Positions 10,985 to 47,437 are shown, counted from the first letter of the stretch. The stretch: 64,000 nt of DNA from an uncultured Rivularia sp. (GCA_963665115.1 OY762007.1:6112001-6176000); one strand, 5' to 3'. Translations and numbers: made by a program. The notes: generated by a model not told the origin, from the sequence alone.

Positions 10985-11082
10985 ACTGCGAACAAATTCT
11001 ATTTCCGTAAAACCTTGCTTTTAACTAAAAATTAATGGCACTTAGTTTGACATGACAAAATAACCTTTCACAAATAAGTAAT

Positions 11083-11439: not shown

Positions 11440-11589
11440 TATCAAATACAGTCAATTGCCTGCATACTATAAGAATAATATATTAAAATCTTGGTAAATC
11501 CAATATTGCAGCCTTTTTTAAATACTAACGTTCTTCAATCATATGTTTCCCATCGCGCCATTTATCAGTCTCTTAGACAGGAATTTGGC

Positions 11590-11823: not shown

Positions 11824-12080
11824 ATTATATACGGAATATAGTGTATTTTTTTATTTTGTATATTCGATGCGATTGCTTTGCAGATGCCCGCTCGCCGCAC
11901 CTACGGTGAAAGGTCAAATCGCAACCTTTATTACCTAATTTTATAGATAACTGAACTATTTAATTGAGAATACTTACCCGTGTTCACCTTCCGGAGCGTT
12001 GCTCCCCTAAAACTTTTGACAAAATTCTCAACCAACTTACCGAAGTGAAAATTTTGCCCTTCGGTGGAGAAAAGGGAGTA

Positions 12081-13816: not shown

Positions 13817-13974
13817 AATTCCTCCGTTGCAAATGCATGAGAAAATAGAGCGACGCTGCTACTACAACTCGCCACTGAGTAAAATTAATTTCTTTCATCG
13901 CCAAGATTGAGAACTATCAAGTATTAAGCAGCTACAGAGATGCAACTGTTTAATACTTAATAGAAGAAAATTAC

Positions 13975-14455
13975 TTGTTATCCCAAATAGTAACACATAG
14001 TTATCACAATAGATATTGAAGAATAAAAAGCAGTAAACCCGCCTAATGTTTAGCGGGTTTATCTTTAAGCATCTGCTTTAACTGTTCAAGCAATTGCCTG
14101 AGAGAATTATTTTCTTCTCTCAGGCGGCGGTTTCCCCCAGCAATACCTCTTCAAGTTTTTCAACTCGTTGTCTTAATTCTAAAATATCGCCACTTTCAGC
14201 ACTTACTCCAAGATACTGATCGATTAAATCTATAAGAACATCAGTGGCATTTTTACCTTCTGCCTTCACTTTATGGTAGAAAGCATCTTTTTTATCAGGT
14301 GAAATTCTAATATTTAGCCTTGACTCAGCCATAATAATTCCCTTTGCTAATTATTCTAGAGTTATTTCAAATTAGCAATTAAGCCACGGGATAACAAGTG
14401 TACATACGAATTACAGCTATTTGTTATCCCTCCGTGTTGACAAATGGGATAACAA
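13975..14455. promoter_or_regulatory. Four exact copies of GGGATAACAA, candidate RHH operators
   Basis: Copies at 13975-13984 (rc), 14388-14397, 14421-14430 (rc) and 14446-14455; the last two bracket a TTGACA -35 box at 14437. Confidence 0.6.
14120..14332 (-). CDS. RHH DNA-binding protein with coiled coil; probable -1 frameshift extension to 14043
   Basis: SRLNIRISPDKK...ATDVLIDLIDQYL; see findings. Confidence 0.75.
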   Translation of the reverse strand: MAESRLNIRISPDKKDAFYHKVKAEGKNATDVLIDLIDQYLGVSAESGDILELRQRVEKLEEVLLGETAA

Positions 14456-14565
14456 ACATTATTTTAGATAATAAGACAAATACAGCCATGCGTTCGCCTG
14501 TCCTGAGAAAACTAGTACGAACACATGGAGGTAAGCCAAACTCCTATAAAGTCAGGCATCTAATT

Positions 14566-15252
14566 ATGACGTATCTATGTACCAAGCAGCAAGCGCTTCA
14601 TAGTGATAAAAACCAACTAACTATTTCCACAGGCTCAAATGCAATCCCCCAAAGTGATATCACAACAGTAGAAATAAGTTTCTACGACCATGAAATTTAC
14701 GCTGGTGAAAAACTAATTGCTTGTATTGCTCATGACCATGATGATTTTGCGACTCAACGCTGGGTGGTGATGATAAATAGTGTTGAAGTCCACCGAGCAA
14801 ATACTTGGGCAAAATGCTACGACTACATCATATGGCATTACAAGCAAGGAACATTGCCTACACAACAGCAAGAAGAAATAGCTGCAACTTGTAATGAAGA
14901 AACAGCAGAAGTTACCCCAATATCCAAGTTTGAGTTTGACTTATGCAATGATGTTGCCAAACAGAACTTGGTGAAGCTCGACGAAATTGCTTGTAAATCC
15001 TGTAACCATTGGGTAGTGAGAGTCTACGCTCAAAACCAGTTAACACTAAGCTTTGATGGAATATGTCTAAAAGTTGAGTCTTTATGGTTAATAGAAATTT
15101 CTCCACTAGAAAGTAATCAAAGCACAAGTATAAGTGAGAGTTGTGAGGAATTATTAGATCAACCCTTCGATGAATTGATTAGCGAAGAATGGGAAAGATT
15201 AAAAAAGTACAAACCGATTGCTAAAAAGATTCAGACAGCAGCCTTGTACTAA
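14566..15252 (+). CDS. Hypothetical protein
   Basis: In-frame ATG at 14566 of ORF 14398-15252; the upstream part overlaps promoter and operator sequence. Confidence 0.6.
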   Translation: MTYLCTKQQALHSDKNQLTISTGSNAIPQSDITTVEISFYDHEIYAGEKLIACIAHDHDDFATQRWVVMINSVEVHRANTWAKCYDYIIWHYKQGTLPTQQQEEIAATCNEETAEVTPISKFEFDLCNDVAKQNLVKLDEIACKSCNHWVVRVYAQNQLTLSFDGICLKVESLWLIEISPLESNQSTSISESCEELLDQPFDELISEEWERLKKYKPIAKKIQTAALY

Positions 15253-15348
15253 AACCTATAGAACTAACAGTCATGCTTTTCTGCGGATTCTATAGAACGA
15301 ATTTCCATTCCATGAAATTAACAATCAACATATCGAAGGTTAATCAAA

Positions 15349-16393
15349 ATGTTCAAGAAAGCCACAAAATCCAACTTGAAAATAAGGCTTGCCTTAAGCG
15401 GAGCATCCGGTTCTGGCAAAACATACTCAGCACTTTCAATCGCTTCTAACCTTGGTAATCGCATTGCTCTGATTGACACCGAAAGAGGTAGTGCTTCTAA
15501 ATACGCTGATTTATTCAATTTTGACACCTGTGAACTTACGAACCATCACCCAGCGAAATACATAGAAGCAATTCGCCAAGCAGAGGATATGGGGTATGAC
15601 ATCATAATTATCGATTCGTTAACTCATGCATGGTTCAGTGAACTAGAGTTAGCAGGTGGTAGATTTGATGGATGGGCAAAAGTCCGCCCTTTGGAGCGTA
15701 AATTAATCGATGCGATGATTGGATCAAAATGCCATATAATTGCGACGATGCGAAGCAAAACTGAATGGCTGATTGAAGAAAATCAAAAGAAGGGTAAATC
15801 CTCTTATAGTCCCAAGAAAATAGGCACATCACCAATACAGGCAAGCGGAGTAGAATACGAGTTTGATGTCGCCGGAGAGCTTGATTATACGCACATTTTA
15901 ACCATTAGTAAGAGCCGTTGCCCTGCTGTTACGGATAAAACTTTTCTCAATCCTGGTAAGGAATTGGCGTTTGAATTAAAGTCCTGGTTAGCAACAGAAG
16001 AATCACAACCACAAACTATAGAATCTCCTCAAAAATTAGAATCAGCTTGGGTTGCAGATACTCAAGATTTGCGAGTCAAGCAAATTCGTACCTTGCTTGA
16101 TTATCCCATTGAATTAATTAAAGAATGGCTGCAATCCAATATTGTTCAGCGTCCCCAGTCAACTTGATAGTCACAAAGTTGATGAATTAGTAAAAACGAT
16201 GTGTCTTGCTTGGGCTTCCCCTCTGTCTGCTCATCCTAAGTACACTGCTGATTCCTACGATAAGAACGTAGTCAGAGCAGTGATTGAAGGTTATTCGGAA
16301 TTGGAGGCAATTCAAAATTGGATGAAGCAGGTTCAGCAATTTAAGAAGCAAGAGCAGAAGCAAGAAGCTGGAATTTTTTCATCCTTTAGTTGA
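15349..16393 (+). CDS. AAA_24 family (Sak4-like) ATPase, frameshifted near 16155
   Basis: Walker A GASGSGKT, IDTERGSA, Walker B IIIDSLTHAW, EYEFDV. Removing one C from CCCC joins ORF 16142-16393. Confidence 0.8.
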
Positions 16394-16505
16394 AAACCTG
16401 AAAAATAAGTAAATATTGCTAGACTCTTCCTTCAAAACTTACTTTATGCGAATGCAACATTGATTGTTGCATTCGTAACATTGATTTGTATTTTTTCTAA
16501 TCGCG

Positions 16506-17108
16506 TTGCAAATGTATCCAAATCAAATTATTCAGTTATTGCAATCAACACCTTTGGAAGCAAGACAGTTTCTCCGCTACAGTTTTGGCATAGATAAGTT
16601 ATCTCCCGAAGAGATTTTAGAAGAAGAATTAAATTTTAGCTATGGCACTAAATGCATTAATTTACTTTCAAAACTTTTAGGATTTAGAAAACAAACTATA
16701 CGAAGTTGGGGCGATAATCCTAACTTTTGGAATATGCCAAAACATTCACAAATTGCTTGTAGTTACGCGCAAATAGCTTTATCTCAACAAGAATTAAAGA
16801 GAGTGAGTAATGAAAAATATATTGCCCCAAGAACAACAGCACTGGAATTTATCGAAGAAACTCTTTTAAATGCTTCGTCACCATCACAAAGAATAAAGAT
16901 ATTAACCTCTACTAACTTTCGAGGAAGTTGTCTTAAATTGTTATCGGAAACTTTAGCTATATCAGAGCGGACAGTTTATGAATGGGGACGGGATATTGAG
17001 TTCAGTAATATGTCTAAATATCATCAACATACCCTTGCTTATGCGCTTGCTGCATATTGCAAAAGACAAAAATTCAATTTGAATAATAATTTTGTTTTGT
17101 ATTCTTAG
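16506..17108 (+). CDS. Hypothetical protein with two tandem HTH-like repeats
   Basis: CINLLSKLLG..QTIRSWG..NFWNMPKH is repeated as CLKLLSETLA..RTVYEWG..EFSNMSKY. Preceded by a palindrome at 16447-16477. Confidence 0.6.
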   Translation: MQMYPNQIIQLLQSTPLEARQFLRYSFGIDKLSPEEILEEELNFSYGTKCINLLSKLLGFRKQTIRSWGDNPNFWNMPKHSQIACSYAQIALSQQELKRVSNEKYIAPRTTALEFIEETLLNASSPSQRIKILTSTNFRGSCLKLLSETLAISERTVYEWGRDIEFSNMSKYHQHTLAYALAAYCKRQKFNLNNNFVLYS

Positions 17109-17619: not shown

Positions 17620-18024
17620 ATGATGGTATGTGATGACAATGTTATATATACCCAGAAAAGCCTTGCCCAAAGATATGGAATAACTATCTCAGCTTTGCAA
17701 CAGTGGTATCCCTATGCCGGGATAGTAAAACCCAAGAAGCGAGGAGGATACTTTGATTTAGATGCTGTTCAAACTGCCGACTTTTTTTACGTAGCCACTA
17801 AGATAAGACGATTAACCAGAGACGAATATCTAGAAAGAGTAATTCCTTCTGGTGGTTTAGATGAATTTATGCGTCAAAATAACGGACTAAGCCTGTACGA
17901 TTTTTTGACGAAACATATTTCTGAAGATGAAAAACAAGACCCAATTGTTAAATCTGTTATTAGGAGGATTGAGAGATATGAAACACATCAACAAAGTAGC
18001 TCAAACTTTGCAAACTACACCTGA
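17620..18024 (+). CDS. MerR/excisionase-like HTH protein; first gene of the membrane operon
   Basis: YTQKSLAQRYGITISALQQW HTH pattern. Confidence 0.6.
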   Translation: MMVCDDNVIYTQKSLAQRYGITISALQQWYPYAGIVKPKKRGGYFDLDAVQTADFFYVATKIRRLTRDEYLERVIPSGGLDEFMRQNNGLSLYDFLTKHISEDEKQDPIVKSVIRRIERYETHQQSSSNFANYT

Positions 18025-18568
18025 AATAGTAATTAAGGTATGTAAAAAACTAAGCTTAGTTGTAAATAAAGATAGTACTATCAAGCCGGAAGTAGAGCGA
18101 CAATTAGTTCAATTAAAAGAAGTAGCTGCTGCTGAAAATATGTCATTAGAAGAAGCCGCTAACCATTTATTGGAAATGCGCCAAGAACGCTCCAGTTCTA
18201 ATAACGAACACACATTTGATGAAAACCAATATATCCAACAAAGATTTGGCGTAAATCCCGAAGAATCTGAATCTAATAGCTTCGTTAAAGTGTTGCATTC
18301 GGATGTTAAAAGAGGAAAGCAACTGGCAACATTACGACATAAAGTAGTTCTCGAAACTTCTACTTTGATGTTAGAAGATATGTTATTTAACGGTGTCCAA
18401 TAACCAACAACAGAATTAGAAGAAGTACAAGGTCGAGTTTACAAGCGTATCGACGATGATTTTTTCGGCAAAGTCAATTGGGGAGAGGAGCCGCATCCGT
18501 CGTTGGAAATGCAGCCTCAACAATTGAAATCAGTGTCGAAGACAAAATCCTTGCCCGAGAAGTCATAA
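17978..18568 (+). CDS. Hypothetical protein (internal TAA at 18401); probable -1 frameshift fusion to the membrane ORF ending at 18828
   Basis: ATG at 17978 overlaps the upstream gene; the frame stays open after the TAA until 18568; slippery site at 18460-18466. Confidence 0.5.
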
Positions 18569-18828
18569 CCTTGATGATGCCGTCAATAGAATCTTACCTT
18601 GGCGAGCAATCCCGACAACTTAGGATTGTAGCGATGCAGGGTATGGGAATTGTATTTTTGGGTAGCTTTTCGGGGATGGTAACGGGATTGGTCTTATCTC
18701 CTCCACAGCAGACGAACATACCAAAGGTAATTTACGGTTCTTTATTTGGTGGCTTAGTTGGAATTTCTGTTGCACTTACTTTGATTTTGAAGATAACCAG
18801 GGAGTTTAGTATTCATGAGAGCGATTAA
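18478..18828 (+). CDS. Two-TM membrane protein segment (no convincing start codon)
   Basis: Two hydrophobic Gly-rich helices; the frame opens exactly at the slippery site. Confidence 0.6.
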   Translation: MGRGAASVVGNAASTIEISVEDKILAREVITLMMPSIESYLGEQSRQLRIVAMQGMGIVFLGSFSGMVTGLVLSPPQQTNIPKVIYGSLFGGLVGISVALTLILKITREFSIHESD

Positions 18829-19042
18829 AGATTTTTTCATTAATATCGGTGGTGGAATATTGACCGGATGCGGTATTAGCGGATTTATCGGTCACGCAAT
18901 GGGAGTCGGTGCAGCCCTTGCAATTAATCCTTTGCTATTGCTCATGGGCGCGGTTTTTGGCGGCGCATGGGTGTGTATACTGCGTTCGACTTTTGTAAGT
19001 TATTCAAGGGAACCTTTGTACGTGATAGTTGATAACAGTTAA
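18815..19042 (+). CDS. Small glycine-rich membrane protein
   Basis: 75 aa with GxxxG hydrophobic helices; overlaps the upstream gene. Confidence 0.6.
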   Translation: MRAIKDFFINIGGGILTGCGISGFIGHAMGVGAALAINPLLLLMGAVFGGAWVCILRSTFVSYSREPLYVIVDNS

Positions 19043-19047
19043 TAGCC

Positions 19048-19884
19048 ATGCAGTTACTTCCTAAAAGGGATAAATTTAATTCGAGTAATACGAGTGCGAA
19101 TGATATACCCAAACTCAAAAAGCGCAGTCGAAAAATCGACATAGTGTTGTGGGTTTGTTGTGCAACGGTTGGATTGGGTTCGGTGTTGGCAGCCGCTGCA
19201 ATTATCATAGGTAGACGAGGTGAAGTACCATCCACTGTTTCTGCTATTACTCGCGCTAAAGAAATAACAGATTCCCGACGGCGTATTTATATCGAGAAGT
19301 TGACTCGCACCGACTTCAATCCCGACGAGTTACAAAACTTCAGTGTTGATGGAAGTGTTACTCTAACGGGTTGGCGGCAACTAGCTGCGGCACAATGGTC
19401 GGGAGAAATAGTGCAAAATATTAACAACCAGCAGAGTAATGAAAATTCACCCTTCTTTAGGCTGCATCATATAGCAGCATTAGCGATCACAAAACTTGAT
19501 ACGATGGATGCTTTGATTGAAGTAGCAGCCGGAAACAATAGTTTTACCTACAGCTATATCAAGACAGATGGTACTAAAGTTGAGCAAAAGTTAAGTACGG
19601 GTGGTGCTGCGGTATTGCTTTTAGGTAAGTTAGAGGCTATTGACTATGCCGAGAATTTACAGAATCGTCCGATAGTGGATTTGAATCAAATGGTAACGCA
19701 AATCCAGACGGTACAAGAGCCATACGCTCTATCCCAAGCGAACTATTTGCGGGTTCAGGGCTATAAAGACCCCGTGCGGCAGTTATCAGAAGTACCAATA
19801 ATACGTCAGAGTATAGCTGAATCATTGCGTAAGAGAAAGCTGAAACTAGAGCAGTTGAAAAAATCCAAACAAGGAGTTGATTAA
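19048..19884 (+). CDS. Membrane-anchored hypothetical protein
   Basis: 278 aa; basic N-terminus followed by a single TM helix. Confidence 0.7.
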   Translation: MQLLPKRDKFNSSNTSANDIPKLKKRSRKIDIVLWVCCATVGLGSVLAAAAIIIGRRGEVPSTVSAITRAKEITDSRRRIYIEKLTRTDFNPDELQNFSVDGSVTLTGWRQLAAAQWSGEIVQNINNQQSNENSPFFRLHHIAALAITKLDTMDALIEVAAGNNSFTYSYIKTDGTKVEQKLSTGGAAVLLLGKLEAIDYAENLQNRPIVDLNQMVTQIQTVQEPYALSQANYLRVQGYKDPVRQLSEVPIIRQSIAESLRKRKLKLEQLKKSKQGVD

Positions 19885-22526
19885 TGTGTATGTCAAATTT
19901 ATTGGCGCGGGTGTATGCTTTTTGCTCTCATTATTTAACGTATTGGGAGCGGTGCGGCAGATTCCGGTGAAGACTACTAATGGTAATTCTTCGCGTCCTA
20001 CTGTCACTCAGATGAAACCTCCGGGAACTAGCTTGCATTGGTTGTCGGGTGGAGTCTTTTTTGCAGCAAGTATCAGTTTAATTGCCTGGGCTATTTGGGA
20101 ATATAACTCCAATATCGACCTCGGTGTTGATTCCACTGAGGCTCCTGCACCTGTTGTGCCACCGATGCCCGACACCGATACCCAAATGCCCCAATTTTTA
20201 GATGAAGGTGCAATCCAATCACAGCAATTTGAGGGTGTTAAACCCGAATTTCAAAACTTAGTTCCGTTTCGTCGCCCTACTGCCGATGGTAGCGTGCCGA
20301 TAACCCCCGAACAATTCAAAAATGCGTGCGACTTGTTAGAACTAGGAGCCAAGCGGTCGGCAGATTACCGACGCAAGCCGGGGTATGAGTTCTGGAGTAT
20401 GCGGGGTAAAATCCTCAAAATACTTTAACTGTTTCAAAGATGTGGGTGAAAGTCCCACCCGTCCGGGATGACGTGACTCCCTATCTGACCACACCGAGCG
20501 GCAACGACCGTAACCGTAGAGTGAAGCTGGTGACAGGGCACAATCAGAAGTAAAGCAGGTAACTACACTGGTGCTAATGGGGATGAAATATGGGTAAACA
20601 GGTTCTAGAAAAGTGTCTTATGAATAAGCCATAACCTGGTCAACAAATATGGACTTCAACATCGTTTATTCCCGCAATCTTATTGCATTTGAGAATTGCA
20701 ATCCTGGGAAGATGTTAGGCAAAATGAACCGCCCTAAGTTTCATAAAAGCTTTCAAATGAAGGTATCTTTGTTACGGAACAAGAAAAAACACTATACAGG
20801 TCTAGGGAAAGGTCGAACCCCTGGTAAGCTAGGTTGAACTTAATTCCTGATAGTGGGTAGGATGTTAGCGGAAACTGCTAACGGGTATTCAGAAAATATT
20901 CAAAGGAAGAGAGCATGGTTAGACATACCCCCCTGGGAAATGAACTTTGGAAAGGGTTACCTTGGAAGAAATTTCGTAAAAACCTATTCCGCCTACAACG
21001 GAGAATATTTAAAGCTGTTAGAGAAGGTGACATGGCGAAAGTCCGAAATCTTCAGAAGCTAATCTTGAAATCCACGTCAGCAAAGCTGTTAGCAATTAGA
21101 CAAATAACGCAATTAAATAAAGGCAAGAGAACTGCCGGAGTGGATGGGAGAAAAACACTGAATTTCATCCAAAGGTTCCAAACACTTTTTCAATTAGGAA
21201 ACATAAATAAATGGATACCACAGGAATTAAGGAGGATTCCTATACGGAAAAAGAATGGAAAAGTTAGAATTTTAAGTGTTCCAACTATAACCGATAGAAT
21301 CTGGCAATGCTTAATAAAATTCGCCTTGGAACCCGCCCACGAAGCAACCTTTCATGCCAATAGTTATGGGTTCAGAACAGGTAGAAGCGCCCACGATGCC
21401 CAGAAGATGGTCTTCCAAAGATTAAATTCGAGAGTCAAGGGATATGATAAGAGAATAATTGAACTCGATATCAAAAAATGCTTCGACCGCACAAGTCATG
21501 AAACAATCATGACTCAACTAATTGCCACATCCGGAATAAAACAGGGAATATTCAGATCACTTAAAGCCGGAACATTCCCGGAATTCCCTGAGCAAGGATG
21601 CCCGCAAGGAGGAGTTTTTAGCCCATTACTTGCTAACATTGCTTTAAACGGTACACAATAGCATACGATATGCGGATGACATGGTGTTGTTTCTTAAGCC
21701 AAATGAGGACGCAGGAAAAATACTTCAAAAAGTTAAGACATTCTTGGCCCAAAGAGGTATGCAAATTAGTGAAGAAAAGACAAAGATAAGGCCATCGACA
21801 ACAGGATTCAACTTTCTAGGTTGGAACTTTAAAGTCCAGAAAAACGGTAAGTTTAGAAGCACTCCATCGAAGGAGAACTTTGAAGCTATGCGTGAGAAAG
21901 TAAAATTCATAGTCAACAACTCTAATTATGGGGCTGAAGTAAAAGCACAAAAGCTGGCACCTATTATACGAGGATGGAGAAACTACCACCGCTTCTGCAA
22001 CATGAATAACGTGAGAGATTCCTTATGGTTCATAGCCAAAAGAACTTTTCGAGTATTCAACAAGCAGAAAAAGCTTAACCGATATCAAGCCGAATCGCTA
22101 GTAAAGAAAGCTTTCCCATCGGTTAAATGGGCAGAAAGTAAATTTGTCAATGTAAAAGGTGAGAAATCGCCTTACGACGGAGACATAGTTTATTGGAGTC
22201 AACGGGAATCCAAACTGTATGACGGAATTTCAGCCAAGCTTCTCAAGAAGCAAAACCATACATGTGCTAGATGTGGGATGAAGTTTCTCCCAGGAGAAGA
22301 TGTTCACCTACATCACATAGATGGAAACCACGATAACTGGAAACCAAAGAACTTAGAAATGGTTCACCAGTCGTGTCACCAGTATACGCACATGAGCAAA
22401 GCGAAAGCTCAGAATATCTAGGAGCCGGATGCGGCTAAAGTCGCACGTCCGGATCTGAAGGAGAGGTGCGGAGCGTAATAGCTCTCATCGACTCTAACTT
22501 TAGAAGACGATGTTTGGTCTGATTAA
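19877..22526 (+). CDS. Membrane protein split by group II intron 1 (exons 19877-20325 and 22499-22526)
   Basis: Joined exons read ...PEQFKN-GC|T-TTA GAA GAC GAT GTT TGG TCT GAT TAA (ALEDDVWSD*); the next gene starts at 22538. Confidence 0.75.
20326..22498 (+). mobile_element. Group II intron 1
   Basis: 5' GTGCG at 20326; domain V GAGCCGGATGCGGCTAAAGTCGCACGTCCGGATCT; domain VI ending CTCTAAC at 22498. Confidence 0.92.
20915..22421 (+). pseudogene. ltrA: Group II intron RT/maturase/HNH, frameshifted by an 11-nt deletion before YADD
   Basis: PQGG motif; YADD present at about 21670 in the shifted frame; C-terminal CxxC-HNH. Alignment with intron 2 shows the deletion. Confidence 0.88.
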
Positions 22527-22537
22527 AGAGGTAAATT

Positions 22538-23035
22538 ATGGCAAATAATAGACGTAGAGATTTTGGTGTTGACTATTCTCAACCCGGTCAATTAGCGACA
22601 CAACAACAATTAGCGCAAATGTTACATAACGCTCAACAACAGCAATATCCGACTCAACAACCAACTACTATTAACGTCGAGCCGACTTCAATACACCGCG
22701 AACAAGGTATTAGCGTACATCACGTAAATTCTCAGAATAAACCGGCGGTTAATCGAGTGCCAGAGATTTATGTCCCCGTAACAGATTATTGGAAAGCTCA
22801 TAGATTCCATCCTCACAACAATTTACGTTACTTTTGGTATATCTTCTATTGGCTCAAAGATGCGATTTCATCCCCCGTAGGTATTGCCATTGTGATGTTG
22901 TGGTTGGGCATTGGTGGAATTAATTTCTTGCTAAATGGTAATTATTCTGGTCCTGGTTACGTACAGAATAAAGAAATTAAACTAACACCGGAAAATGTAC
23001 CTAATTTAACTCCGGTTGTCGATTTGGTGGATTGA
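22538..23035 (+). CDS. Hypothetical membrane protein (Gln-rich N-terminus)
   Basis: 165 aa, RBS AGAGGT, hydrophobic segment near the C-terminus. Confidence 0.7.
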   Translation: MANNRRRDFGVDYSQPGQLATQQQLAQMLHNAQQQQYPTQQPTTINVEPTSIHREQGISVHHVNSQNKPAVNRVPEIYVPVTDYWKAHRFHPHNNLRYFWYIFYWLKDAISSPVGIAIVMLWLGIGGINFLLNGNYSGPGYVQNKEIKLTPENVPNLTPVVDLVD

Positions 23036-23286
23036 TGTTTGTCCGCATAACCTTTTGGTTGGTGCTATGTTTGTTCGTAGCAGATATAGCCCAACCTGGA
23101 TACTTAAAGTTTTGGCAACCTAAGATTACCTTGACCAATATCGATATCAGGTTGCCAAGACTAAATAATAAAGAAACTAGTCCAACAGTATCCCCTCCGC
23201 AACCTTCTTCTTGCCCCCTGCCTGATAATGACTTAGAAGTAGTTATTCGAGCTAGATTTGGCTGCCACAATGCGACTTCTAATTGA
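23035..23286 (+). CDS. Small exported or membrane protein
   Basis: Hydrophobic N-terminus, Pro-rich linker; TGATG overlap with the upstream stop. Confidence 0.55.
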   Translation: MFVRITFWLVLCLFVADIAQPGYLKFWQPKITLTNIDIRLPRLNNKETSPTVSPPQPSSCPLPDNDLEVVIRARFGCHNATSN

Positions 23287-23884
23287 TTTTAGTACTACCG
23301 AAACGAATAAAAGAGATGCATCAATAGTAAAACCAATTTCTCCTAATTGGAAATATGGTTTTTCTACGTTGGTTCTATGTACGGCGATCGCACTTCCTCA
23401 ATTTTCTGGATGGGTTGAGTCCCAACTCCCAATTCGATTACTCCAACGACTCGCAAAAACTACGAACAACGTGACCAAATCACAAAGTACAGCTTTTCCC
23501 ACAATAAAAGGTTCACCTATGACCAGTGGTTTTGGTTGGAGAATTCATCCCCTTACTGGAAAACGTCAATTTCATTCTGGTCTTGATTTTGGTGCTTCCA
23601 AAGGTTCTCCAATTTATGCTTTTGAAGCAGGTAAGGTCGAGTTTGCTGGCTCCAAAGGTGGTTATGGTAAAGCTGTTATTATCAATCACGGTGCCCGAAA
23701 GTCAACCCTTTACGGTCATGCGAAGGCGCTTTCTGTAAGAAAAGGAGAAAGAGTTGCAACAGGACAAATGATTGGGGAGGTCGGAAGTACGGGATTTTCC
23801 ACCGGACCGCATTTACATTTTGAGGTGAGGCTAAATAATAAGCCAGTAAACCCGCGTCCCTATCTACAGCAACGCGGGAGATAA
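23258..23884 (+). CDS. M23 family peptidoglycan endopeptidase
   Basis: TSGFGWRIHP, HSGLD, YGH and STGPHLHFEV zinc motifs; N-terminal TM. Confidence 0.93.
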   Translation: MAATMRLLIDFSTTETNKRDASIVKPISPNWKYGFSTLVLCTAIALPQFSGWVESQLPIRLLQRLAKTTNNVTKSQSTAFPTIKGSPMTSGFGWRIHPLTGKRQFHSGLDFGASKGSPIYAFEAGKVEFAGSKGGYGKAVIINHGARKSTLYGHAKALSVRKGERVATGQMIGEVGSTGFSTGPHLHFEVRLNNKPVNPRPYLQQRGR

Positions 23885-23887
23885 AAA

Positions 23888-24598
23888 ATGATTCGCCCCT
23901 ATCACCTCACAATCTTGTCTTTACTAATTCTATCTTCCCCTTTATTTGGATTATCAATCAATCAAGGTTTCAGCTACATAGATAGGAATAATGCTGAAAA
24001 ACTGTTTGCTAATATTGAAAGTCCCGGTAATCTTGCTATCTGCCGCGCTGAAGGAAATTGTGACAAAAATGGTCAATTTACCTCATTATATTATGGTCAC
24101 ATTGACCCATCAAAAATAGGAGGTAAGCGAGTATTAAATCAAGGATTTTGTAGCGACTACGGTAAAAGTAAAGCGGGTGATATTGATGGTGCAAATCGCG
24201 GCTGTTTGCGTCGAATAAAATCTCGTTTACCGCGATTAACTAAATTATTTCAACAGCATAATATTGATGTAAATGAACATACTGCTGCCTATATTAATGC
24301 CGTAGATTTATGGAATCAAGCTGCACCTAAAGTTAGCGATAATTTTCCTCAAATTTATGCAAATAATATATCTTTTGGATTATCTATTGATGATGCTATT
24401 CGTCGCTCCCGAATTGATGCATTCAATTTAAGCGCGTCCGGCTTGTTTAATATTTGTAGCAGAGAACCATATTACATCTCAAGACTTGCTGCTTATCGTC
24501 AAAATTCAACACAATGGAAGCGTGGATGCATTGACATTGACCAAAACCGCAGACGATTGGCAATCAATGAAATATTAACTCATCGGGGAGTAATTTAG
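23888..24598 (+). CDS. Secreted protein, possible lysozyme-like cell-wall hydrolase
   Basis: Signal peptide; AICRAEG...YYGHIDP...NQG resembles lysozyme-fold enzymes (inference). Confidence 0.45.
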   Translation: MIRPYHLTILSLLILSSPLFGLSINQGFSYIDRNNAEKLFANIESPGNLAICRAEGNCDKNGQFTSLYYGHIDPSKIGGKRVLNQGFCSDYGKSKAGDIDGANRGCLRRIKSRLPRLTKLFQQHNIDVNEHTAAYINAVDLWNQAAPKVSDNFPQIYANNISFGLSIDDAIRRSRIDAFNLSASGLFNICSREPYYISRLAAYRQNSTQWKRGCIDIDQNRRRLAINEILTHRGVI

Positions 24599-24600
24599 TA

Positions 24601-24762
24601 ATGGAACTCGATAATTTTATATATAAAGCTATTGTTCATGCTCGTGATGGGGGAATGGGTAAAGATGAAATATTAGAAACAACTAAAGAAAATTTACCTG
24701 ATAGTTTACACGACAATGCGATTGCTATTGTTAATAATTTAGATTTTGATGTTAAGCAATGA
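24601..24762 (+). CDS. Small hypothetical protein (53 aa)
   Basis: MELDNFIYKAIVHARDGG...KQ*; fills the operon gap and its TGA overlaps the next ATG. Below the ORF-track cutoff. Confidence 0.55.
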   Translation: MELDNFIYKAIVHARDGGMGKDEILETTKENLPDSLHDNAIAIVNNLDFDVKQ

Positions 24763-25983
24763 GAGCCTTATTTTTCCCATTTGTCGGAATTATTCAACTA
24801 TATCTTTTATTTAGTAAATCAAAATAAGAAGGATGAAGCAATATTAAATCAATTATCAAATAGCTGCAACTTGGAGCAATTCGAGTTTGTTAAATACGCA
24901 CTGCGTTATATCAATATCAATCGCATTCCTTCTGCATGGGAACTAGATAACGTACATAGCGAACTAGTCGAGCTTGATGTTGATGAACTAATAAAAAGAT
25001 GCGAAACTCTTAAAAACTTTGCATATAAGGAAGTTGCATATCGGATAATACTGCAACATCTTTACACGGCATTTTGTGAGAATAAACCGATTAAGTGGTT
25101 CATTGATATTGCCCGCTCAACTACTGATGAAACGATTATAAAATATTGCGATCGCGCAGCTGTAATGATATCTAAAGCTCAAGGTGTGGAGCCAATTAAC
25201 GCATTGGAATCAGCGAAAACAGATATTGAACAAACAAGCATATCAACAACTGAGTCCGGAAAGCTGATTATAGATACCCTAGCTGAATTTAAGATAGCAG
25301 CAGAATATATTGACGCACAATGCGGTCCCACATTTAACCGCATCAAAATCAAACTTGGTAAAGGAGTTTCATTTAAGAAAATCCAAGATTTTGGTAACGA
25401 CTTTGTGCAGCAGCTCGGAGACACTTTAAATATGGATACTGCACCAATGGTGTCCGTTGTTCCTGGTGGTGCTGCTATTGATGTCCCTCGCAGCGATAGA
25501 GAAATTGTTTATTTCAAAAATTATGCTGATTTTTCATTACCTATAGATATACATAATGTTGTGATTCCCGGTGGTGTTGGTGTTGATGGAAAATACGTGG
25601 ATATTCCCCTCTCAGATGAAAACGTGACTCATATCCTTGGTGGTGGAAGAACTCGTGGGGGTAAGTCGCAATTTGAGAAAGCAGCAATACTTTATCTGGC
25701 GCGTCGTTATCCCCCGTCAGTAGTCAAGCTAGCTTTATCCGATGTTAAACGAGTGACTTTTAGCAAATTTTCTAAGTTACCCCATCTAATTGCACCCGTA
25801 GCAAAGGATGCAGCTTCGAGTGCAGAATTATTTAGTTTGTTAGTACAGCAAATGGAAGCCCGGTATCGGGAGTTTGAGAAAGTCGGTTGTGAGACGATAG
25901 CCGAATTTAACCGCAAGCATTACCCCGAATTGATTATGCCTCGGATAGCAAGTTTTACAGACGAATGTACCACACAAAGATGA
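24759..25983 (+). CDS. FtsK/SpoIIIE-family DNA translocase (N-terminal TM; C-terminally damaged)
   Basis: Alpha-domain GPTFNRIKIKLGKGV; Walker A GGRTRGGKS, DVKRV, QMEARY; Walker B FTDE followed immediately by TQR*. A start at 24759 needs removal of one A near 24823. Confidence 0.85.
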
Positions 25984-26326
25984 AATATGCTGTAAAGCAT
26001 TATGCTAATACTACAAATTGGGGAATCATATCCAGCTATGGTCACAAAAAAACTAATAGATGGGTAGGAGAAGGGGAAGGAGTAGAACTCGCTTCTATAT
26101 GCTTTAAGGAAAATAGAATTAATTTTAAACAATGAATAGGCAATTCTGGTGATAAGAGCAAGTTCGATTCTTACTATTGCTATTGGAAGTTTTTATATGC
26201 CGAATTCGAACTAATTGCTATTTAAAATCTTGCATTTTTAGTAGATAGTAGGTTTAACAAAAAGCTTTCAATATCCTGCGTTGTGCGGGGCTAAGTAATT
26301 AGTTTAAACACAATGTATGGAGGTTT

Positions 26327-29300
26327 ATGATGTTACGAAGAAGATTATCGAAGTTAACAAGTGTTCTATCAGATGTTAACTGTGTAATTGGGGGGTTATC
26401 TTTTCTTGCTGTATTTACTGGTTCGTTAGCTGCCATAATTGGTGTTGGAGGATATTCTTTAGAAAAGCTTGGCGTTCTTAAAGAAGAAGATACTTGGGAA
26501 CAAGCTTGGGCTTTTGCTATTGTTTCTTCCACTGTCGGTTTAGCAGGTACTAGCGTTGCAGCTACAACGGGAGCATTTTTAAGTCGCCGGAACATACAAG
26601 CAGAAGATAATAAATGTACAGAAGCATCTAATAATCTTGATTCATCTACAAGCTTCAAGTTAGGTGCGGCTCGTTCTAACTAAGAGCTTCTAGAAACTAG
26701 AAGGGTAAGAGTTAGGTAGATTCGCGGGGAACACCCCAAAATCTATAATCGTTTCAAAGATGTGAGTGAAAAACTCACCCGTCAGGGATGACGTGACTCC
26801 CTATCTGCCCACACCGAGTAGTGACAACCATCCTACAGAGTGAAGCTGGGAACAGGGCGCAATCAGTTGTAAAACAAGCAGGTAACAACACTGGCGCTAA
26901 TGGGGGGAGAATATGAGTAAAAAGATTCTAGAAAAGTGTCTCAGAAGCAAGCCATAACCTGAATAAAAGAATATGGACTTCAGTATCGTAACTCCCGCAT
27001 CATTATCTAACTGATAGATGCAATTCCCTGGGAAGATACTAGGCAAAGTGAATCGCTCTAAGTTCTCATAATATCTTTGTTACGGAACGAGTAAAAACGC
27101 TGTCTAAGGTCTGAAGCGTAGTCGAAACTTCAGTAAGCCAGGTTGGGACGAATCCCTTACAGCGGGTAGGATGACAGCGGAAACTGCTGTCGGGTATTCG
27201 GAAAATATTCAATGGAGCAGAGCATGATTAGACACAGTGGCAACGCTAGTGAATCTTGGAAAAAGTTACCTTGGAAGAAATTCCGTAAGAACTTATTCCG
27301 CCTACAAAAGAGAATATTCAAAGCTATTAGAGTTGGCAACATAGCTCAAGCCAAGTCACTTCAAAAGCTAGTTCTGAAATCGACATCGGCTAAGTTGTTA
27401 GCAATCCGGCAGGTTACGCAACTAAATAAAGGACGTAAAACTGCGGGTATTGACGGTAAGAAGTCCTTAAACTTCAAAGAAAGATTTGAACTTTATAGAC
27501 TACTTTCACAGGTTAACAATTGGAAACACCAAGGACTAAGGGAAGTACCGATTCCCAAAAAGAACGGAAAAACCAGAATACTTAAGGTACCAACAATTCA
27601 AGATCGAGCATGGCAATGTTTAATTAAATACGCTCTAGAACCTGCCCATGAAGCTACTTTCCACGCGAGAAGCTACGGCTTCAGAACAGGACGCTCGGCT
27701 CATGACGCACAAAAGATTATTTTTCTCAATCTTAAATCTGACCGAGATGGGAAGAATAAAAAAGTAATCGAATTAGACATCAAAAAATGCTTTGATCGAA
27801 TTAGCCACAAGTCAATAATGGACGAGGTGATAATACCCAAAGGAGCAAAACTAGGAATATTCCGCTGCCTTAAAGCCGGAATAAACCCAGAATTTCCCGA
27901 ACAAGGAACTCCCCAAGGTGGAATCGTGAGTCCACTGCTAGCAAATATAGCATTAAACGGAATTGAGGATATACACTCCAGCGTTCGCTATGCCGACGAC
28001 ATGATTATATTCTTAAAACCGGGTGAAGATGAAGTAACAATACTAGAAAAAATATCTCAGTTCCTTAAAGAACGAGATATGGAACTAAGCCAAGAAAAAA
28101 CTAAAGTAACAGCTACGACAGATGGATTTGACTTTCTGGGCTGGAGATTTTCAGTACAGAAAAACGGAAAATTTAGAAGCACTCCCTCAGAGGATAACTT
28201 CAAAGCTTTCCGCGACAAAGTTAAATTCATAGTTAATAACTCTAATTATGGGGCTGAAACAAAGGTCACGAAACTAGCTCCCATCGTAAGAGGCTGGCGT
28301 AATTATCACAAATACTGTGACATGAATAACACCAGACACTCACTGTGGTTCATTAGCTACAGAACATTTAAAGTCTTTTTGAAACAAAAGAAAATTAGCA
28401 GATACAAGGCACAAGCACTAGTCAAGAAAGCTTTTCCTGCTGTTAAATTCACCCAGAATAAATTCGTCAACGTCAAAGGAACAAAATCCCCATACGACGG
28501 TGATGTGACTTACTGGAGTCAAAGAGAATCTAAACTTTATGACGGGAAATCAGCCAAGCTTCTCAAGAAGCAAAACCATACTTGTACTCATTGCGGTATG
28601 AAGTTCTTACCAGGTGAAGATATTCAACTCCACCATAAGGATGGAAACCACGATAACTGGAAAGACAACAATCTCGAAGTCATCCACCAATCGTGCCACC
28701 AATATAAGCACATGAGCAAAGAGCCTCAAATTATTGAATTGCAGAATAAAACCTGGTTTTTCAAGAAAGAGGACTCAAAGGATATCTAGGAGCCGAGTGC
28801 CGGGAAACTGGCACGCTCGGTTCTGAAGGAGAGGTGCCCCGGATAATACCGGGCATCGACTCTAACCAATGACTCGCGATATGTTTGTGATGTGTCGCGA
28901 TAATGATAAGGAGGAAGAAAATAAACCATTAGTTTACACATATTATTTTGTGGAAATCAAAGGTAATCCATCGATTAGCGGATTGATGGTATCAAGAATG
29001 CAATCAAATTCAATCGCTGTATGCGACTGCATTTCTCTAGAAGATGAAGAAAGACTAATGCTAATCCATGAAAATCCTGGGGAAAGTCCCAGGTTAATTG
29101 GAAAAACCTTTTCTAGCTATCAACCATTACCGACAGAAGCGTTACGCGAACACTTGGATATTTACAATCCATACCTATATGCACTTCAAAGCAAAGACTT
29201 TGAACCATGCAATTTAGAATCTTGCAAAGGCTGTCAGCATTTGCACGGCAAGGATAGGATAGTTTGTGGGATATATGCTTATGGATGGAATGGTATTGAC

Positions 29301-29816
29301 TGCCCAGATAAGGTTTGGGATAAAAGAAGTGCAATTCGTAGGTTTGAAGACGAAGCTGCTATCGCATCCTTGTCCGAAGGACTCAATGAATGGAAAATCT
29401 TTAAATATGACTATTTAATTAGTCTCTTTCATCCAAAAACATACCGCCAATTTAGCTTTGATTTTGATGGTAAGCTTCTTTCTTATTCCAAAACGCTAGA
29501 TGGGCTTGAAGAAGGCAATATTGTTGATTACGTCTACTTCTTACGTCGCTCTCGACAATTTCAGTATGATTATTCACATGCTGATTTTATCGAACAAGCA
29601 AGTTTCTTTCTTGACGAAGTAGATGCAATAATTAGTGTGGATGACTTTAAGATATTTGTAAAAGAGAAAGACTCAAATGTTGTCCATACTTTTTTACATA
29701 ATGGCGAACCATTTTTTGCCCTGAACCCTGCTTGTCCTCCAAAGCTTAAAGACAACTACAATTTATCTACGTTAATTGACTATTTATATAATGACGTGGA
29801 TGAATTGGATTCTTAG
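26327..29816 (+). CDS. Membrane protein with a Cys-rich motif, split by group II intron 2 (exons 26327-26663 and 28867-29816; 428 aa)
   Basis: Exon join TTA G|CA ATG ACT fuses ORF 26327 and ORF 28869 in frame; CKGC...C...C motif. Confidence 0.78.
26664..28866 (+). mobile_element. Group II intron 2
   Basis: 5' GTGCG at 26664; domain V GAGCCGAGTGCCGGGAAACTGGCACGCTCGGTTCT; ends CTCTAAC. RNA domains clearly homologous to intron 1. Confidence 0.95.
27212..28789 (+). CDS. ltrA: Group II intron RT/maturase/HNH endonuclease (intact)
   Basis: 525 aa; GTPQGG, RYADD, X domain GWRNY, CTHC...HHKDGNH HNH. Confidence 0.95.
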   Translation: MEQSMIRHSGNASESWKKLPWKKFRKNLFRLQKRIFKAIRVGNIAQAKSLQKLVLKSTSAKLLAIRQVTQLNKGRKTAGIDGKKSLNFKERFELYRLLSQVNNWKHQGLREVPIPKKNGKTRILKVPTIQDRAWQCLIKYALEPAHEATFHARSYGFRTGRSAHDAQKIIFLNLKSDRDGKNKKVIELDIKKCFDRISHKSIMDEVIIPKGAKLGIFRCLKAGINPEFPEQGTPQGGIVSPLLANIALNGIEDIHSSVRYADDMIIFLKPGEDEVTILEKISQFLKERDMELSQEKTKVTATTDGFDFLGWRFSVQKNGKFRSTPSEDNFKAFRDKVKFIVNNSNYGAETKVTKLAPIVRGWRNYHKYCDMNNTRHSLWFISYRTFKVFLKQKKISRYKAQALVKKAFPAVKFTQNKFVNVKGTKSPYDGDVTYWSQRESKLYDGKSAKLLKKQNHTCTHCGMKFLPGEDIQLHHKDGNHDNWKDNNLEVIHQSCHQYKHMSKEPQIIELQNKTWFFKKEDSKDI

Positions 29817-29969
29817 CTTGAATTTTCTGATTGAATCTTTTAAAACCTCCACCTTTAATTTCTAATTATTAGTGGCGGTACGGAACTACTCAGTACGGGG
29901 GATTTTCCCCCACTACTGGGTAGTAATCGATAACCGCTACCCAATTGTTATTAATTAAAGGAAATCGCA

Positions 29970-30389
29970 ATGTTTACAACCCAATTTGTTACAACTCCCG
30001 AAATTGTTTGTACTATCAACGATTTATTGTTTCCCCTCTTCTTGTTTTGTTTGATATTTGGGTTTTTATGCTATTTAACTTACGATTATGAACAACATCA
30101 TAAATCCTCCGAAATTGATAGCAAGTCCGATTGCGTTGAAGTGACTAAAATGCAATCTGAATCGAAAATAATTCAAGTAATAAAAGAAGAAGCAATGACA
30201 ATTGTGGAGAAGGATAAGCAAGCTAAGTTGTTAATTGATTTGGGTATCCGAAACCTACGCTTGTTTTGTAAGCAACAGCAAATTAAAGGTTATTCCACTG
30301 CTTATAAAAGAGGAAAGATGAAAGGTTTAGCTGAGTTTTTGCTTAGTCAAGGATACTTTTATTCGGATATTGCAATTGCGTTGAAATAA
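29970..30389 (+). CDS. Hypothetical membrane-anchored protein
   Basis: 139 aa, RBS AAGGA, one TM helix. Confidence 0.6.
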   Translation: MFTTQFVTTPEIVCTINDLLFPLFLFCLIFGFLCYLTYDYEQHHKSSEIDSKSDCVEVTKMQSESKIIQVIKEEAMTIVEKDKQAKLLIDLGIRNLRLFCKQQQIKGYSTAYKRGKMKGLAEFLLSQGYFYSDIAIALK

Positions 30390-31411: not shown

Positions 31412-32289
31412 TTAAAACTCCGGCACAAATAATTCCTTACTTGCTCCAGCATAATGCTCGTAAATCATCTTAGGACTCGTCCCAACTAACTTCGCTACAT
31501 CCTTTGCATCAAGCATCTTGGTTCTTCCATCTGGGGTAGGAATTGGTGTTTCTAAGGCTGCTGTAATAAAAGTATGCCTGGTTTGATAAAGTTTACGATA
31601 CTCTATGGTGCCATTTAATTCTTGAAGCACAGAACGCCATACTCTATTCGTAAGGTTATGGACATCAATCCATTTACCTTTGGGAGAAGGAAATACTTTA
31701 GTCTCACCAGTAGCACCTTCTGGTTTGATTGACTCTAGAAGTGCTGCGAGTTTCTTGTTTGCTGGAAACGAACGTTTTTTCTGAGTCTTCAATCCTTTTT
31801 TACATACCAGTCCGTTTTCTGCTTCAACTACCGCTTGTTCAAATCGTATTGTTCTGAAGTCATCTGAAATATGCTTCCATTGCAAAGCAACAGCTTCAGA
31901 TGGCGAGCAATTTTAGTATAATCCTTTGCCAAAGTACTCGGCGATAGGCTAGAACGCTTAAAATCAGTATATTTCTCCCACAACTTCACCAATGTTGGTT
32001 GAGACGCAGATGGTGTAGAAGATGGTGTAAATGGTGTAATTTCTCCTGAATCGACTTGTGACTTGTATTTATCCAAATCCTTGGGGTCAAACCGCTCAAA
32101 CAAAATATCTTTTTCAATTTCCGAAGCCTTTAATTTAGCTAACTTCCGATGATGCGGCGTATCGGGATAGCCAGTAGAAATATAATACCGCTTGCGGGCA
32201 AAGTGAAATCTTAGCTGCAAACGACCATTAGAAAGAATTACCGATACAGAACCTTTAGAAGCCCTGCCAGTTGGTGTTTTAGAAGCCAT
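31412..32289 (-). pseudogene. Tyrosine integrase with an arm-binding domain, internally deleted
   Basis: N-terminal GRLQLRF...YISTGYPDT arm-binding domain; YTKIAR is joined directly to PSEAVALQWKHI in another frame; C-terminal YQTRHTF and IYEHY retained. Confidence 0.85.
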
Positions 32290-47340: not shown

Positions 47341-47437
47341 AACTGAAATTATTATTAGTTTTTATGTACTACTTTGTGATATTATTCAGTTAATCTATTC
47401 AATTTCCGTGCCAAGCATTAAAACTGGAGAAGGTTTT

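Follow-up and report, generated by a model that had tools for sequence, protein, structure and literature searches.

The DNA pump TraB of Streptomyces binds repeated 8-bp motifs (clt) through its C-terminal winged-helix domain, and TdtA of Thermus thermophilus is an ATPase of the FtsK/HerA class. TraB and the Spd proteins account for the conjugation of plasmids as double-stranded DNA (dsDNA) and for their intramycelial spreading (PMC4447253, in part), and TdtA, encoded by an integrative and conjugative element (ICE), pushes DNA out of the donor in the process known as 'transjugation' (PMC5365140, in part). In the MPF_FA systems of Firmicutes (pCW3 Tcp, ICEBs1 and Tn916), an FtsK-like ATPase, TcpA, is the coupling protein of a VirB4-holding locus, accompanied by membrane-anchored peptidoglycan hydrolases and small membrane proteins (PMC4027160, in part). 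Here, we describe an operon of heterocystous cyanobacteria that shares components with these systems. It is located at positions 17620-30389, on the plus strand, of a 64,000-nucleotide stretch of the genome of an uncultured Rivularia sp. (GCA_963665115.1 OY762007.1:6112001-6176000), hereafter the window, and consists of 14 co-oriented, tightly packed genes, including those for an M23 peptidoglycan endopeptidase and an FtsK-type pump.

As in the TraB/Spd system, an FtsK-type dsDNA motor is combined with small membrane proteins on a mobile element of a filamentous host, where a role in spread along the filament may be proposed, and the single FtsK-like motor keeps its ATPase motifs in intact relatives, although it is broken in the window. 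Unlike in Streptomyces, the cyanobacterial pump lacks a transmembrane (TM) segment, a search for repeats gave no convincing clt-like family, the wall hydrolases have genes of their own, and the elements also bear a type IV secretion system (T4SS) and, in the case of plasmid pCC7120beta, a relaxase. The set of an FtsK-like ATPase, membrane-anchored hydrolases and small membrane proteins recalls MPF_FA, but the cyanobacterial operon has no VirB4-like gene and lies tens of kilobases from a T4SS with a VirD4-type protein of its own. Like TdtA, the ATPase is borne on a mobile element; however, TdtA works with the competence system of the recipient, and we know of no comparable set of membrane and wall proteins in the Thermus case. 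A linear transferable plasmid of a Firmicute likewise combines an ftsK-like ATPase with ~10 genes outside the known conjugation families; there, transfer was shown by mutants.

An operon of membrane proteins, wall hydrolases and an FtsK-type pump

The initial annotation of the window described about 11 co-oriented, closely packed genes at 17620-25983. The start and the shared orientation were correct, but the operon comprises 14 genes and does not end at 25983, as c13 and c14 extend it to 30389 (Table 1). Between 18815 and 24601, neighbouring open reading frames (ORFs) overlap or are separated by no more than 12 nt. Pfam, searched with window ORFs of at least 90 aa, names only two operon products, the FtsK ATPase and the M23 peptidase; the latter, already recognized in the initial annotation, also has M23 matches in PHROGs and NCBIfam (both searched with the ORFs of 9433-32289). 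A hydropathy scan of the operon ORFs revealed membrane or signal segments in o18478, o18815, o19048, o19877, o22538, o23032, o23888 and o29970, as well as in o26327; with at least eight such ORFs, the earlier count of about six TM or exported proteins is borne out. The first gene, c01, had been described as a helix-turn-helix (HTH) protein, for which we obtained weak matches only (HTH_17 and mad1). The products of c03-c08 match nothing in Pfam, PHROGs or NCBIfam, and that of c02 belongs to no family in these libraries or in PADLOC. A PADLOC scan of 24 proteins matched the FtsK domain to SspH and mad8 and produced one weak mad1 match (2.6e-4) and nothing else. Beyond the FtsK, M23 and lysozyme domains, no operon ORF matched a T4SS, type VII secretion system (T7SS), defence or phage structural family.

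Conservation and distribution

In a collection of species genomes, we identified 92 relatives of the operon, of which 80 loci were kept for counts. According to their records, almost all belong to Nostocales (Nostoc, Calothrix, Rivularia, Scytonema, Tolypothrix and others), and one is a metagenome-assembled genome labelled Chroococcales. These 80 loci, all from heterocystous cyanobacteria, and likewise 14 plasmids keep the order of the genes. In what follows, G000 denotes the genome carrying the window, G144, G242 and G401-G405 are comparison genomes, and L-numbers refer to relative loci. With the most complete gene set, that of G144, as the query, individual genes were found in 41 to 80 of the 80 loci (Table 1), the counts for the last four being depressed by short contigs and by locus flanks limited to 10 kb. 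Among 401 cyanobacterial genomes, c05 is present in 3 of the 45 from the same family and in none of the 355 from other families, and a HMMER profile run over 1.84 billion representatives retrieved 31 proteins. Ratios of non-synonymous to synonymous substitution rates (dN/dS) between the window and three relatives are below 1 in all 28 finite comparisons (0.05-0.62, with 0.05-0.08 for c01; 2 more were saturated). Along with the gene order shared by the 80 loci, this shows that the operon genes are under purifying selection and are not chance ORFs. Because dS varies strongly between the genes, the operon is a mosaic.

Two further copies are present in G000. Copy B (1,651,943-1,660,189, minus strand) is syntenic with the window copy and encodes a truncated FtsK of 506 aa. 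Copy C (G000:C1 4,357,577-4,364,462; L007) is a divergent sister operon, which retains recognizable c01/c02-like and o23888-like genes, has ORFs of 321 and 461 aa instead, and contains no FtsK or M23 domain recognized by Pfam.

Comparison with metagenomes and metatranscriptomes was made at the level of contigs. One contig of a mat metatranscriptome is identical to 25111-25646, and others contain near-identical pieces of c02, c03, c04 and c14, which is a weak hint of operon transcription, DNA carry-over being possible; operon stretches without RNA-contig cover are uninformative.

The pump is most similar to FtsK

In the window, the ATPase ORF (24781-25983) matches FtsK_SpoIIIE (PF01580, 2.5e-17) and FtsK_alpha (PF17854, 5e-08). 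The suspicion voiced in the initial annotation that this copy is damaged proved correct, the lesions being an in-frame TGA and a 689-bp deletion. A single tblastn alignment covers 24619-25968, with the ATPase ORF and the preceding 53-aa ORF sharing one frame, and the TGA separating them (24760-24762) is CGA in L018. Hence, 24601-24762, previously taken for the gene of a separate 53-aa protein, represents the N-terminus of FtsK severed by the CGA>TGA change. Further downstream, a 689-bp stretch of L018 (14752-15440) is replaced in the window by 24 nt at 25969-25992; the deletion took everything past Walker B plus the start of a 73-aa gene. The window module is accordingly best described as predicted to be dead, with a stop codon in the pump gene, the C-terminal third of the pump lost and the adjacent integrase internally deleted. 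At 25962-25995, several contigs of run X1, which contains 99% of the words of the stretch, and of X4 stop or fork right at the filler, so that the filler may belong to a short repeat located elsewhere.

The intact protein has 665 aa in L027 (L027:11269-13266), and 57 of the 65 FtsK ORFs are at least 615 aa long (median 724). In alignment A6, the Walker A, Walker B, TQRPD and IRSN motifs show little or no variation. Among solved structures, the full-length pump best matches the FtsK motor of P. aeruginosa (2IUU, 3.6e-41), followed by EssC-type chains (1.3e-14) and by 6O1W (2.6e-12), a conjugative 'DNA translocase coupling protein'; similarity to this solved coupling protein is weak. As in cellular FtsK/SpoIIIE, the alpha and beta motor domains are present and Walker A, Walker B and the arginine-finger region are conserved. 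Unlike the cellular proteins, the pump has no N-terminal membrane domain, in contrast to the TM anchor originally assigned to it, and no detectable gamma domain, has an N-terminal domain (~190 aa) and a C-terminal region (~55 aa) peculiar to itself, and is encoded on plasmids and ICEs with a patchy distribution among species. It also differs from the EssC/EccC proteins of T7SS in having one motor domain, which follows FtsK_alpha, and no TM segment, and EssC-type chains score far below FtsK. The assignment of the pump as a true FtsK-type dsDNA translocase rather than a protein pump appears well supported.

The only other FtsK-like ORF of G000 (722 aa; C1 ~744,342-746,500, minus strand; L003) has no TM segment either and, by eye, its N-terminus resembles a 3'-5' exonuclease; no canonical membrane-anchored FtsK was seen in this genome. 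In 36 of the 80 loci, an extra ORF of ~160 aa with a weak, sub-threshold AAA_22 P-loop match is located between c12 and c13 (for instance, at 16576-17055 of L098). It is present in most Nostoc-type operons and lacking in the window type.

Linkage to conjugative elements

Of the operon-bearing plasmids, 11 are typed as conjugative, 2 as mobilizable and 1 as non-mobilizable. On pCC7120beta of Nostoc sp. PCC 7120, the operon is found at 165-180 kb, with All7666 (WP_010993994) as the pump; a T4SS block at 21-39 kb encodes TrbI/VirB10, a coupling protein and a 942-aa ATPase with weak P-loop matches, and a MOBP relaxase with a NikA-like partner is encoded at 145 kb. The VirB4 profile PF03135 misses even this ATPase, which renders its negatives worthless, and for this reason the 942-aa protein, for which a PDB sequence/profile search was empty, was itself used as the VirB4 query. 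Its homologues, together with a VirD4-type coupling protein (PF02534), are present in all five genomes or records tested. Measured in the orientation of the operon, 12 of the 13 chromosomal or large-contig copies have a VirB4-like gene on their upstream side, at a distance of 43-139 kb. The nearest one is 95, 96 and 119 kb away from the window copy, copy B and copy C of G000, respectively; 101 kb in G144; 43 kb in G242:C2; 78 and 105 kb in G401 (L022 and L026); 139 kb in G402 (L088); 61 kb in G403 (L056); 63 kb in G404 (L085); and 113 and 137 kb in G405 (L025 and L075, the latter only with a circular chromosome), contig C1 being taken as the record naming each locus in G401-G405. L082 of G402 has none within 290 kb. 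By chance, a VirB4-like gene would be expected within 120 kb on a given side of ~7% of copies (five genes in 8.69 Mb), an estimate to be read with the caveat that related genomes are not independent.

The three copies of G000 share a common arrangement. Searches with pCC7120beta ORFs (tblastn) recovered, for each of them, the T4SS block, a ParM-like gene, a pb_159244-like gene, cargo, the HTH gene and the operon; in the copy C element, the cargo includes heavy-metal genes up to 92% identical to those of pCC7120beta. Given the same order in three regions, we conclude that the window includes the last third, on the right-hand side, of a pCC7120beta-like element of ~112 kb integrated in G000, with the putative borders at ~6,032,000 and 6,144,500 of G000. 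Homology to L027 and L028 stops at 32501, which is the likely right end of the element, shortly past a broken integrase gene (Table 1) whose intact counterpart encodes 403 aa (L027:16531-17742).

The statement of the initial annotation that no relaxase, VirB4, capsid or terminase is recognizable holds for the 64-kb window, both among window ORFs (Pfam) and among the ORFs of 9433-32289 (PHROGs and NCBIfam), and also for the neighbour clusters within 10 kb of the operon in the 80 loci (45 representatives, covering most of the top 70 clusters), which comprise defence genes, insertion sequences (IS), homing endonucleases and group II introns. It does not hold for the surroundings at large, where the T4SS block is found at the distances given above. 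FtsK is the only clear ATPase inside the operon locus, and the VirB4-class homologues fall outside. With conjugative elements of more than 100 kb, a 'T4SS-free' verdict reached from 64 kb can thus simply reflect the size of the window. In G000 as a whole, no relaxase was detected with three Pfam families (PF03432, PF08751 and PF03389).

The T4SS encoded by the same hosts and elements, with TrbI/VirB10, the coupling protein and the 942-aa ATPase, is that of the cyanobacterial MPF_C class, which is defined without reference to the operon in the portion of PMC4027160 considered here. Unlike the components of MPF_C, the operon forms a separate gene block, and none of its proteins matched T4SS families. 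The T4SS linkage and the integrated pCC7120beta-like elements indicate that the operon is an accessory backbone module of conjugative elements and not a stand-alone system.

A possible accessory device for dsDNA passage

The anatomy of the operon, its membership in a family of related loci and its link to conjugative elements are firmly established by the data above. As for its function, we tentatively propose that the window contains a decayed copy of a 14-gene backbone module that serves as an accessory dsDNA-passage device beside the T4SS, a statement that, mechanism included, is more doubtful than probable. The membrane proteins would assemble into a complex in the envelope or septum, and the membrane-anchored hydrolases would open peptidoglycan locally; a hexamer of FtsK might then dock on the complex via its own N-terminal domain and pump dsDNA of the element through it. 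The most plausible route would lead into the neighbouring cells of the filament, after the T4SS has delivered the element into one cell, since spread along the filament following T4SS entry best fits a module that is both optional and T4SS-linked. Passage of dsDNA through septal or cell walls with spread along the filament is possible, if doubtful. We consider it rather unlikely that multicellular cyanobacteria possess a second, T4SS-independent DNA highway, in which dsDNA copies move through septa after conjugative entry, and to the same degree speculative that such a highway would be a convergent counterpart of Streptomyces TraB/Spd, built from about ten families without known relatives.

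Several observations weigh against this proposal. The T4SS of these elements, which looks complete and has its own coupling protein, could explain all transfer. The module is optional, with c05 in only 3 of the 45 genomes of the family, and in G000 two of the five VirB4-like clusters stand apart from any operon copy. In library and fold searches, none of the about nine proteins of unknown function was tied to a known transport part. No TM segment was found in the pump, be it in the window copy or in three intact relatives; its conserved C-terminal block of 55 residues (A7) has no match in PDB or the Protein Atlas, and a DNA-binding domain could not be shown. A search of five intergenic stretches revealed no set of clt- or KOPS-like repeats, only weak two-copy AT-rich ones. 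Finally, decay is frequent: FtsK is truncated in the window copy and in copy B, an IS is inserted in FtsK of G242, and on pCC7120beta an IS separates c10 from FtsK.

The most serious competitor, although unlikely, is that the operon takes part in T4SS conjugation proper, as a wall-crossing or mating-junction module for a thick wall, maybe with a second DNA-feeding ATPase, and does not form a spreading system of its own. That 12 of 13 copies share their replicon or element with a T4SS block, and that 11 of 14 plasmids are typed as conjugative, is as expected under this scenario, and T4SSs of monoderms include membrane-anchored wall hydrolases along with the FtsK-like TcpA (PMC4027160, in part). 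It is harder to reconcile with the location of the operon 31-139 kb away from the T4SS block rather than inside it, with the VirD4-type coupling protein that the block already has, with T4SS clusters that lack the operon, and with a pump that resembles FtsK more closely than it does the conjugative coupling protein of solved structure. Quite unlikely is a segregation device, in which the element-borne FtsK would clear or partition the DNA of a large plasmid or ICE at closing septa. The motor is indeed nearest to chromosomal FtsK, the sole other FtsK-like ORF of G000 is also devoid of TM segments, cyanobacteria are said to be without a canonical FtsK, and reviews and two-hybrid (BACTH) studies name All7666 as the putative one of Anabaena (PMC7766704, PMC9426583 and PMC9705863, in part). 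However, such a gene would hardly be patchy and mobile, carried on plasmids and ICEs and missing from most genomes of the family, or broken in an otherwise complete genome, and two wall hydrolases plus at least eight membrane proteins seem superfluous for a pump that clears septa.

Membrane-containing phages combine small membrane proteins, an FtsK/HerA-class ATPase and wall hydrolases, a make-up that the operon recalls, and the window further encodes, upstream of the operon, a Bro-N protein, a Sak4-like ATPase and an O-like replication protein, whereas a gene for an ImmA/IrrE-type protease is found near the pCC7120beta copy. Nevertheless, a module for morphogenesis, extrusion or lysis in a virus-like element that contains a membrane and no tail, with the FtsK-type ATPase packaging DNA and unrecognized proteins making up the capsid or envelope, is improbable: capsid, portal and terminase families were not detected in any locus, neither a jelly-roll nor a specific viral match is seen with the models of c05 and c13, no replication gene is kept with the operon (the replication-like genes of the window recur in only 2-3 of the 80 loci), and the ATPase, with its FtsK alpha domain and 620-860 aa, is unlike viral packaging ATPases, which are short. 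The virus-extrusion module suggested in the initial annotation found no support. Its favoured idea, a stand-alone TraB/Spd-like conjugation system replacing relaxase and T4SS, could draw on the lack of relaxase and VirB4 genes in the window and within 10 kb of the operon, on the G000 relaxase searches and on L082, but is very improbable in view of the long-range T4SS linkage in 12 of 13 copies and of the relaxase and T4SS on pCC7120beta. Constant co-occurrence with a relaxase and VirB4 had been named there as the finding that would speak against independence; the 13 copies, the five genomes or records and the 14 plasmids largely revealed this pattern for the T4SS, and pCC7120beta has the MOBP relaxase. 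What endures from that interpretation are the FtsK-type motor, the wall hydrolases, the membrane proteins, the mobile element and the filamentous hosts, with along-filament spread viable only as an accessory to the T4SS. The most remote reading is a T7SS-like protein-secretion or an anti-phage defence module. T7SS are indeed powered by FtsK-family ATPases, PADLOC links the ATPase domain to its SspH and mad8 models, and defence genes are common neighbours; yet nothing but the ATPase domain matches, the single motor domain with FtsK alpha and without TM segments does not fit, and the other 13 proteins have no PADLOC match save the weak mad1 one.

A literature search, with subscription journals and supplements outside its scope, found no description of the operon. 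All7666 has been used as the putative Anabaena FtsK in two-hybrid tests with divisome proteins, and the parts of the respective papers considered here make no mention of the operon (PMC7766704, PMC9426583, PMC9705863). What remains as new is a conserved, experimentally accessible FtsK-based module of cyanobacterial conjugative elements, with a possible function in DNA passage. Treatment of All7666 as the divisome FtsK calls for correction, as it belongs to a mobile-element operon that many relatives lack. If the accessory device indeed moves DNA from one cell of a filament to the next, a system of this type would for the first time be known outside the actinomycetes, and it would offer mobile elements a new route for colonising multicellular bacteria. 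The presence of the module on pCC7120beta of the tractable Nostoc/Anabaena sp. PCC 7120 makes the hypothesis testable at once.

Individual operon proteins

NCBI and JGI records give homologues of c05 the name 'phage terminase large subunit'. We rejected a GpA-like terminase large subunit as the identity of c05: even at an E value of 10 there is no Pfam or NCBIfam match, the protein has 278 aa and its model is helical. The label on the c05 family is hence unfounded and should be corrected. Structures were modelled with AlphaFold2 for c05 and c13. The c05 model (predicted local distance difference test score, pLDDT, 82.5) consists of a TM helix, helical hairpins and one small beta hairpin; fold searches (Foldseek PDB, BFVD and VIA wide) returned generic helices only, with prefoldin as the best Foldseek match (E 0.029) and a best VIA Z of 7.4, and no terminase was among the structure matches. 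Compared with VirB8-like proteins, which are bitopic with an NTF2-like periplasmic domain, c05 shows the bitopic topology, but the model is made of helical hairpins with the one small beta hairpin, and no T4SS chain was among the Foldseek and VIA matches. PDB sequence/profile searches were empty for c05 (A1) and for alignment A3, and the Protein Atlas yielded no usable lead for c05.

In 61 of the 80 loci, the protein encoded at position 10 is hydrophobic in its N-terminal region and resembles lambda lysozyme in its C-terminal half (1AM7, 4.6e-18 for the G144 protein). The window gene at this position, o23888, had been annotated as encoding a secreted lysozyme-like protein; sequence comparison does not support this, as o23888 has no Pfam or PDB match, although a lambda-lysozyme-like protein does hold the position in most relatives. 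A relationship of o23888 to the lambda-lysozyme-like family (A4) was tried and rejected (hhalign probability 0.4%).

The spliced c13 ORF encodes 428 aa without an internal stop, 408 of which are identical in L027. It consists of a two-helix membrane hairpin and a 330-aa domain with four invariant cysteines (family alignment A2). The c13 model (pLDDT 70), of which residues 1-98 were effectively compared in the fold searches, matched nothing specific in PDB or viral libraries.

Homologues of the 200-aa HTH-like gene preceding the operon are found near copies B and C and near the operons of G144 and G242, and within 10 kb of the operon in 21 of the 80 loci; ORF 183152-183739 of pCC7120beta is related to it.

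Table 1. Features of the operon and its borders in the window. Loci, number of the 80 relative loci with the gene, counted with the G144 gene set (for c10w, loci with the gene of the window type).
Feature	Position	Strand	Loci	Remarks
200-aa HTH-like regulator candidate	16506..17108	+		weak HTH matches
c01, 134 aa, first operon gene, possible HTH	17620..18024	+	73	
c02, 158 aa, soluble	17927..18403	+	77	201-210 aa in relatives
c03, 116 aa, two hydrophobic segments	18478..18828	+	66	G144 form as query
c04, 75-aa membrane protein	18815..19042	+	80	
c05, 278 aa	19048..19884	+	80	N-terminal TM helix and helical-hairpin domain
c06 exon 1	19877..20325	+	78	two TM segments
Group II intron 1	20326..22498	+		RF00029 53.3 bits at 22420-22498; GTGCG 5' end
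c06 exon 2	22499..22526	+		last 9 codons and stop
c07, 165 aa	22538..23035	+	76	Q-rich N-terminus, one TM segment
c08, 84 aa	23032..23286	+	75	N-terminal TM or signal segment
c09, M23 metallo-endopeptidase (peptidoglycan)	23258..23884	+	71	PF01551 1.6e-35
c10w (o23888), 236-aa exported protein	23888..24598	+	11	signal-like N-terminus
FtsK-type translocase pseudogene	24601..25968	+	68	TGA at 24760-24762; deletion just after Walker B
24-nt filler at deletion junction, then 3' remnant of 73-aa gene	25969..26135	+	41	
c13 exon 1	26327..26663	+	47	two-helix membrane hairpin
Group II intron 2	26664..28866	+		RF00029 59.1 bits; GTGCG 5' end
c13 exon 2	28867..29816	+		soluble domain, four invariant Cys (CxGC...C...C)
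c14, 139-aa membrane protein, last operon gene	29970..30389	+	43-44	
Tyrosine integrase, broken	31412..32289	-		Arm-DNA-bind_2 and integrase matches; 334-bp deletion compared with L027

Group II introns

The operon is interrupted by two group II introns, which had been thought to separate genes and which both lie inside genes (c06 and c13). They display domain V/VI RNA, a GUGCG 5' end, a reverse transcriptase (RT)/maturase ORF and precise absence from empty sites, as expected of group II introns. Pfam identifies RT and maturase domains in both introns and an HNH domain in intron 1; the RT/maturase of intron 1 is split in two (20915-21661 and 21681-22421), and that of intron 2 is intact (525 aa; 27212-28789). 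In DNA comparisons, intron 1 is missing from L018, L027 and L028, and intron 2 from L018 and L027. Joining of the exons restores both host frames, the spliced c06 ending in ...PEQFKNALEDDVWSD, the same as in the intron-free L027 and L018. An alternative layout, with intergenic introns starting with GTGGG or GTGAG and a frame-broken 428-aa gene, was overturned by these intron-free relatives. Since the introns are in sense orientation and exon joining restores the frames, neither is likely to do harm, provided that it splices. In contigs of metagenome DNA, 26663 is followed directly by 28867 and, approximately, 20325 by 22504; these contigs represent intron-less alleles and are no evidence of splicing. 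No RNA joint over either intron was present among the metatranscriptome contigs.

A third group II intron is found on the minus strand within 51413-53900 (RF00029 at 51413-51486; 558-aa RT/maturase at 51674-53350). The operon region is often hit by selfish inserts: group II intron RT genes occur there in five loci (L045 and L066 are among the insert-bearing ones) and a LAGLIDADG/Myb-like ORF is present in five.

Neighbourhood of the operon

Upstream of the operon, a phage- or replication-like block (9433-17108) encodes an O-like/DnaD-like protein (12081-13046, minus strand), a Bro-N/DinD-like protein (13400-13816, minus strand), an AAA_24 Sak4-like ATPase (15349-16167) and an HTH protein. As it is common to only 2-3 of the 80 loci, the block belongs to the variable surroundings of the operon rather than to its core. 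On the other side, a small HSDR_N-like ORF (30773-31351, minus strand) sits between the operon and the integrase gene; it is one of three copies that are 93-100% identical, the others being at 54256-54891 (plus strand) and at 5,976,931-5,977,491 of G000. Just past the inferred right end of the element, the minus strand encodes a TacA-like antitoxin, accompanied by a small ORF as its partner, and a XisH/XisI pair (32928-33519 and 35344-36095).

Elsewhere in G000, a match to the NiFe-hydrogenase large subunit falls into two halves on the same strand of C1 (4,216,726-4,217,529 and 4,226,594-4,226,830), separated by ~9 kb, as if the gene had been split by an inserted element. Interruption of a hydrogenase gene by copy C was considered and discarded, the hydrogenase matches being located elsewhere. 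Within the window, 42836-47692 contains a NACHT gene (NNH5, inactive REase and NACHT) followed by WD40-repeat ORFs in several pieces, which together may represent a broken NACHT-WD40 gene.

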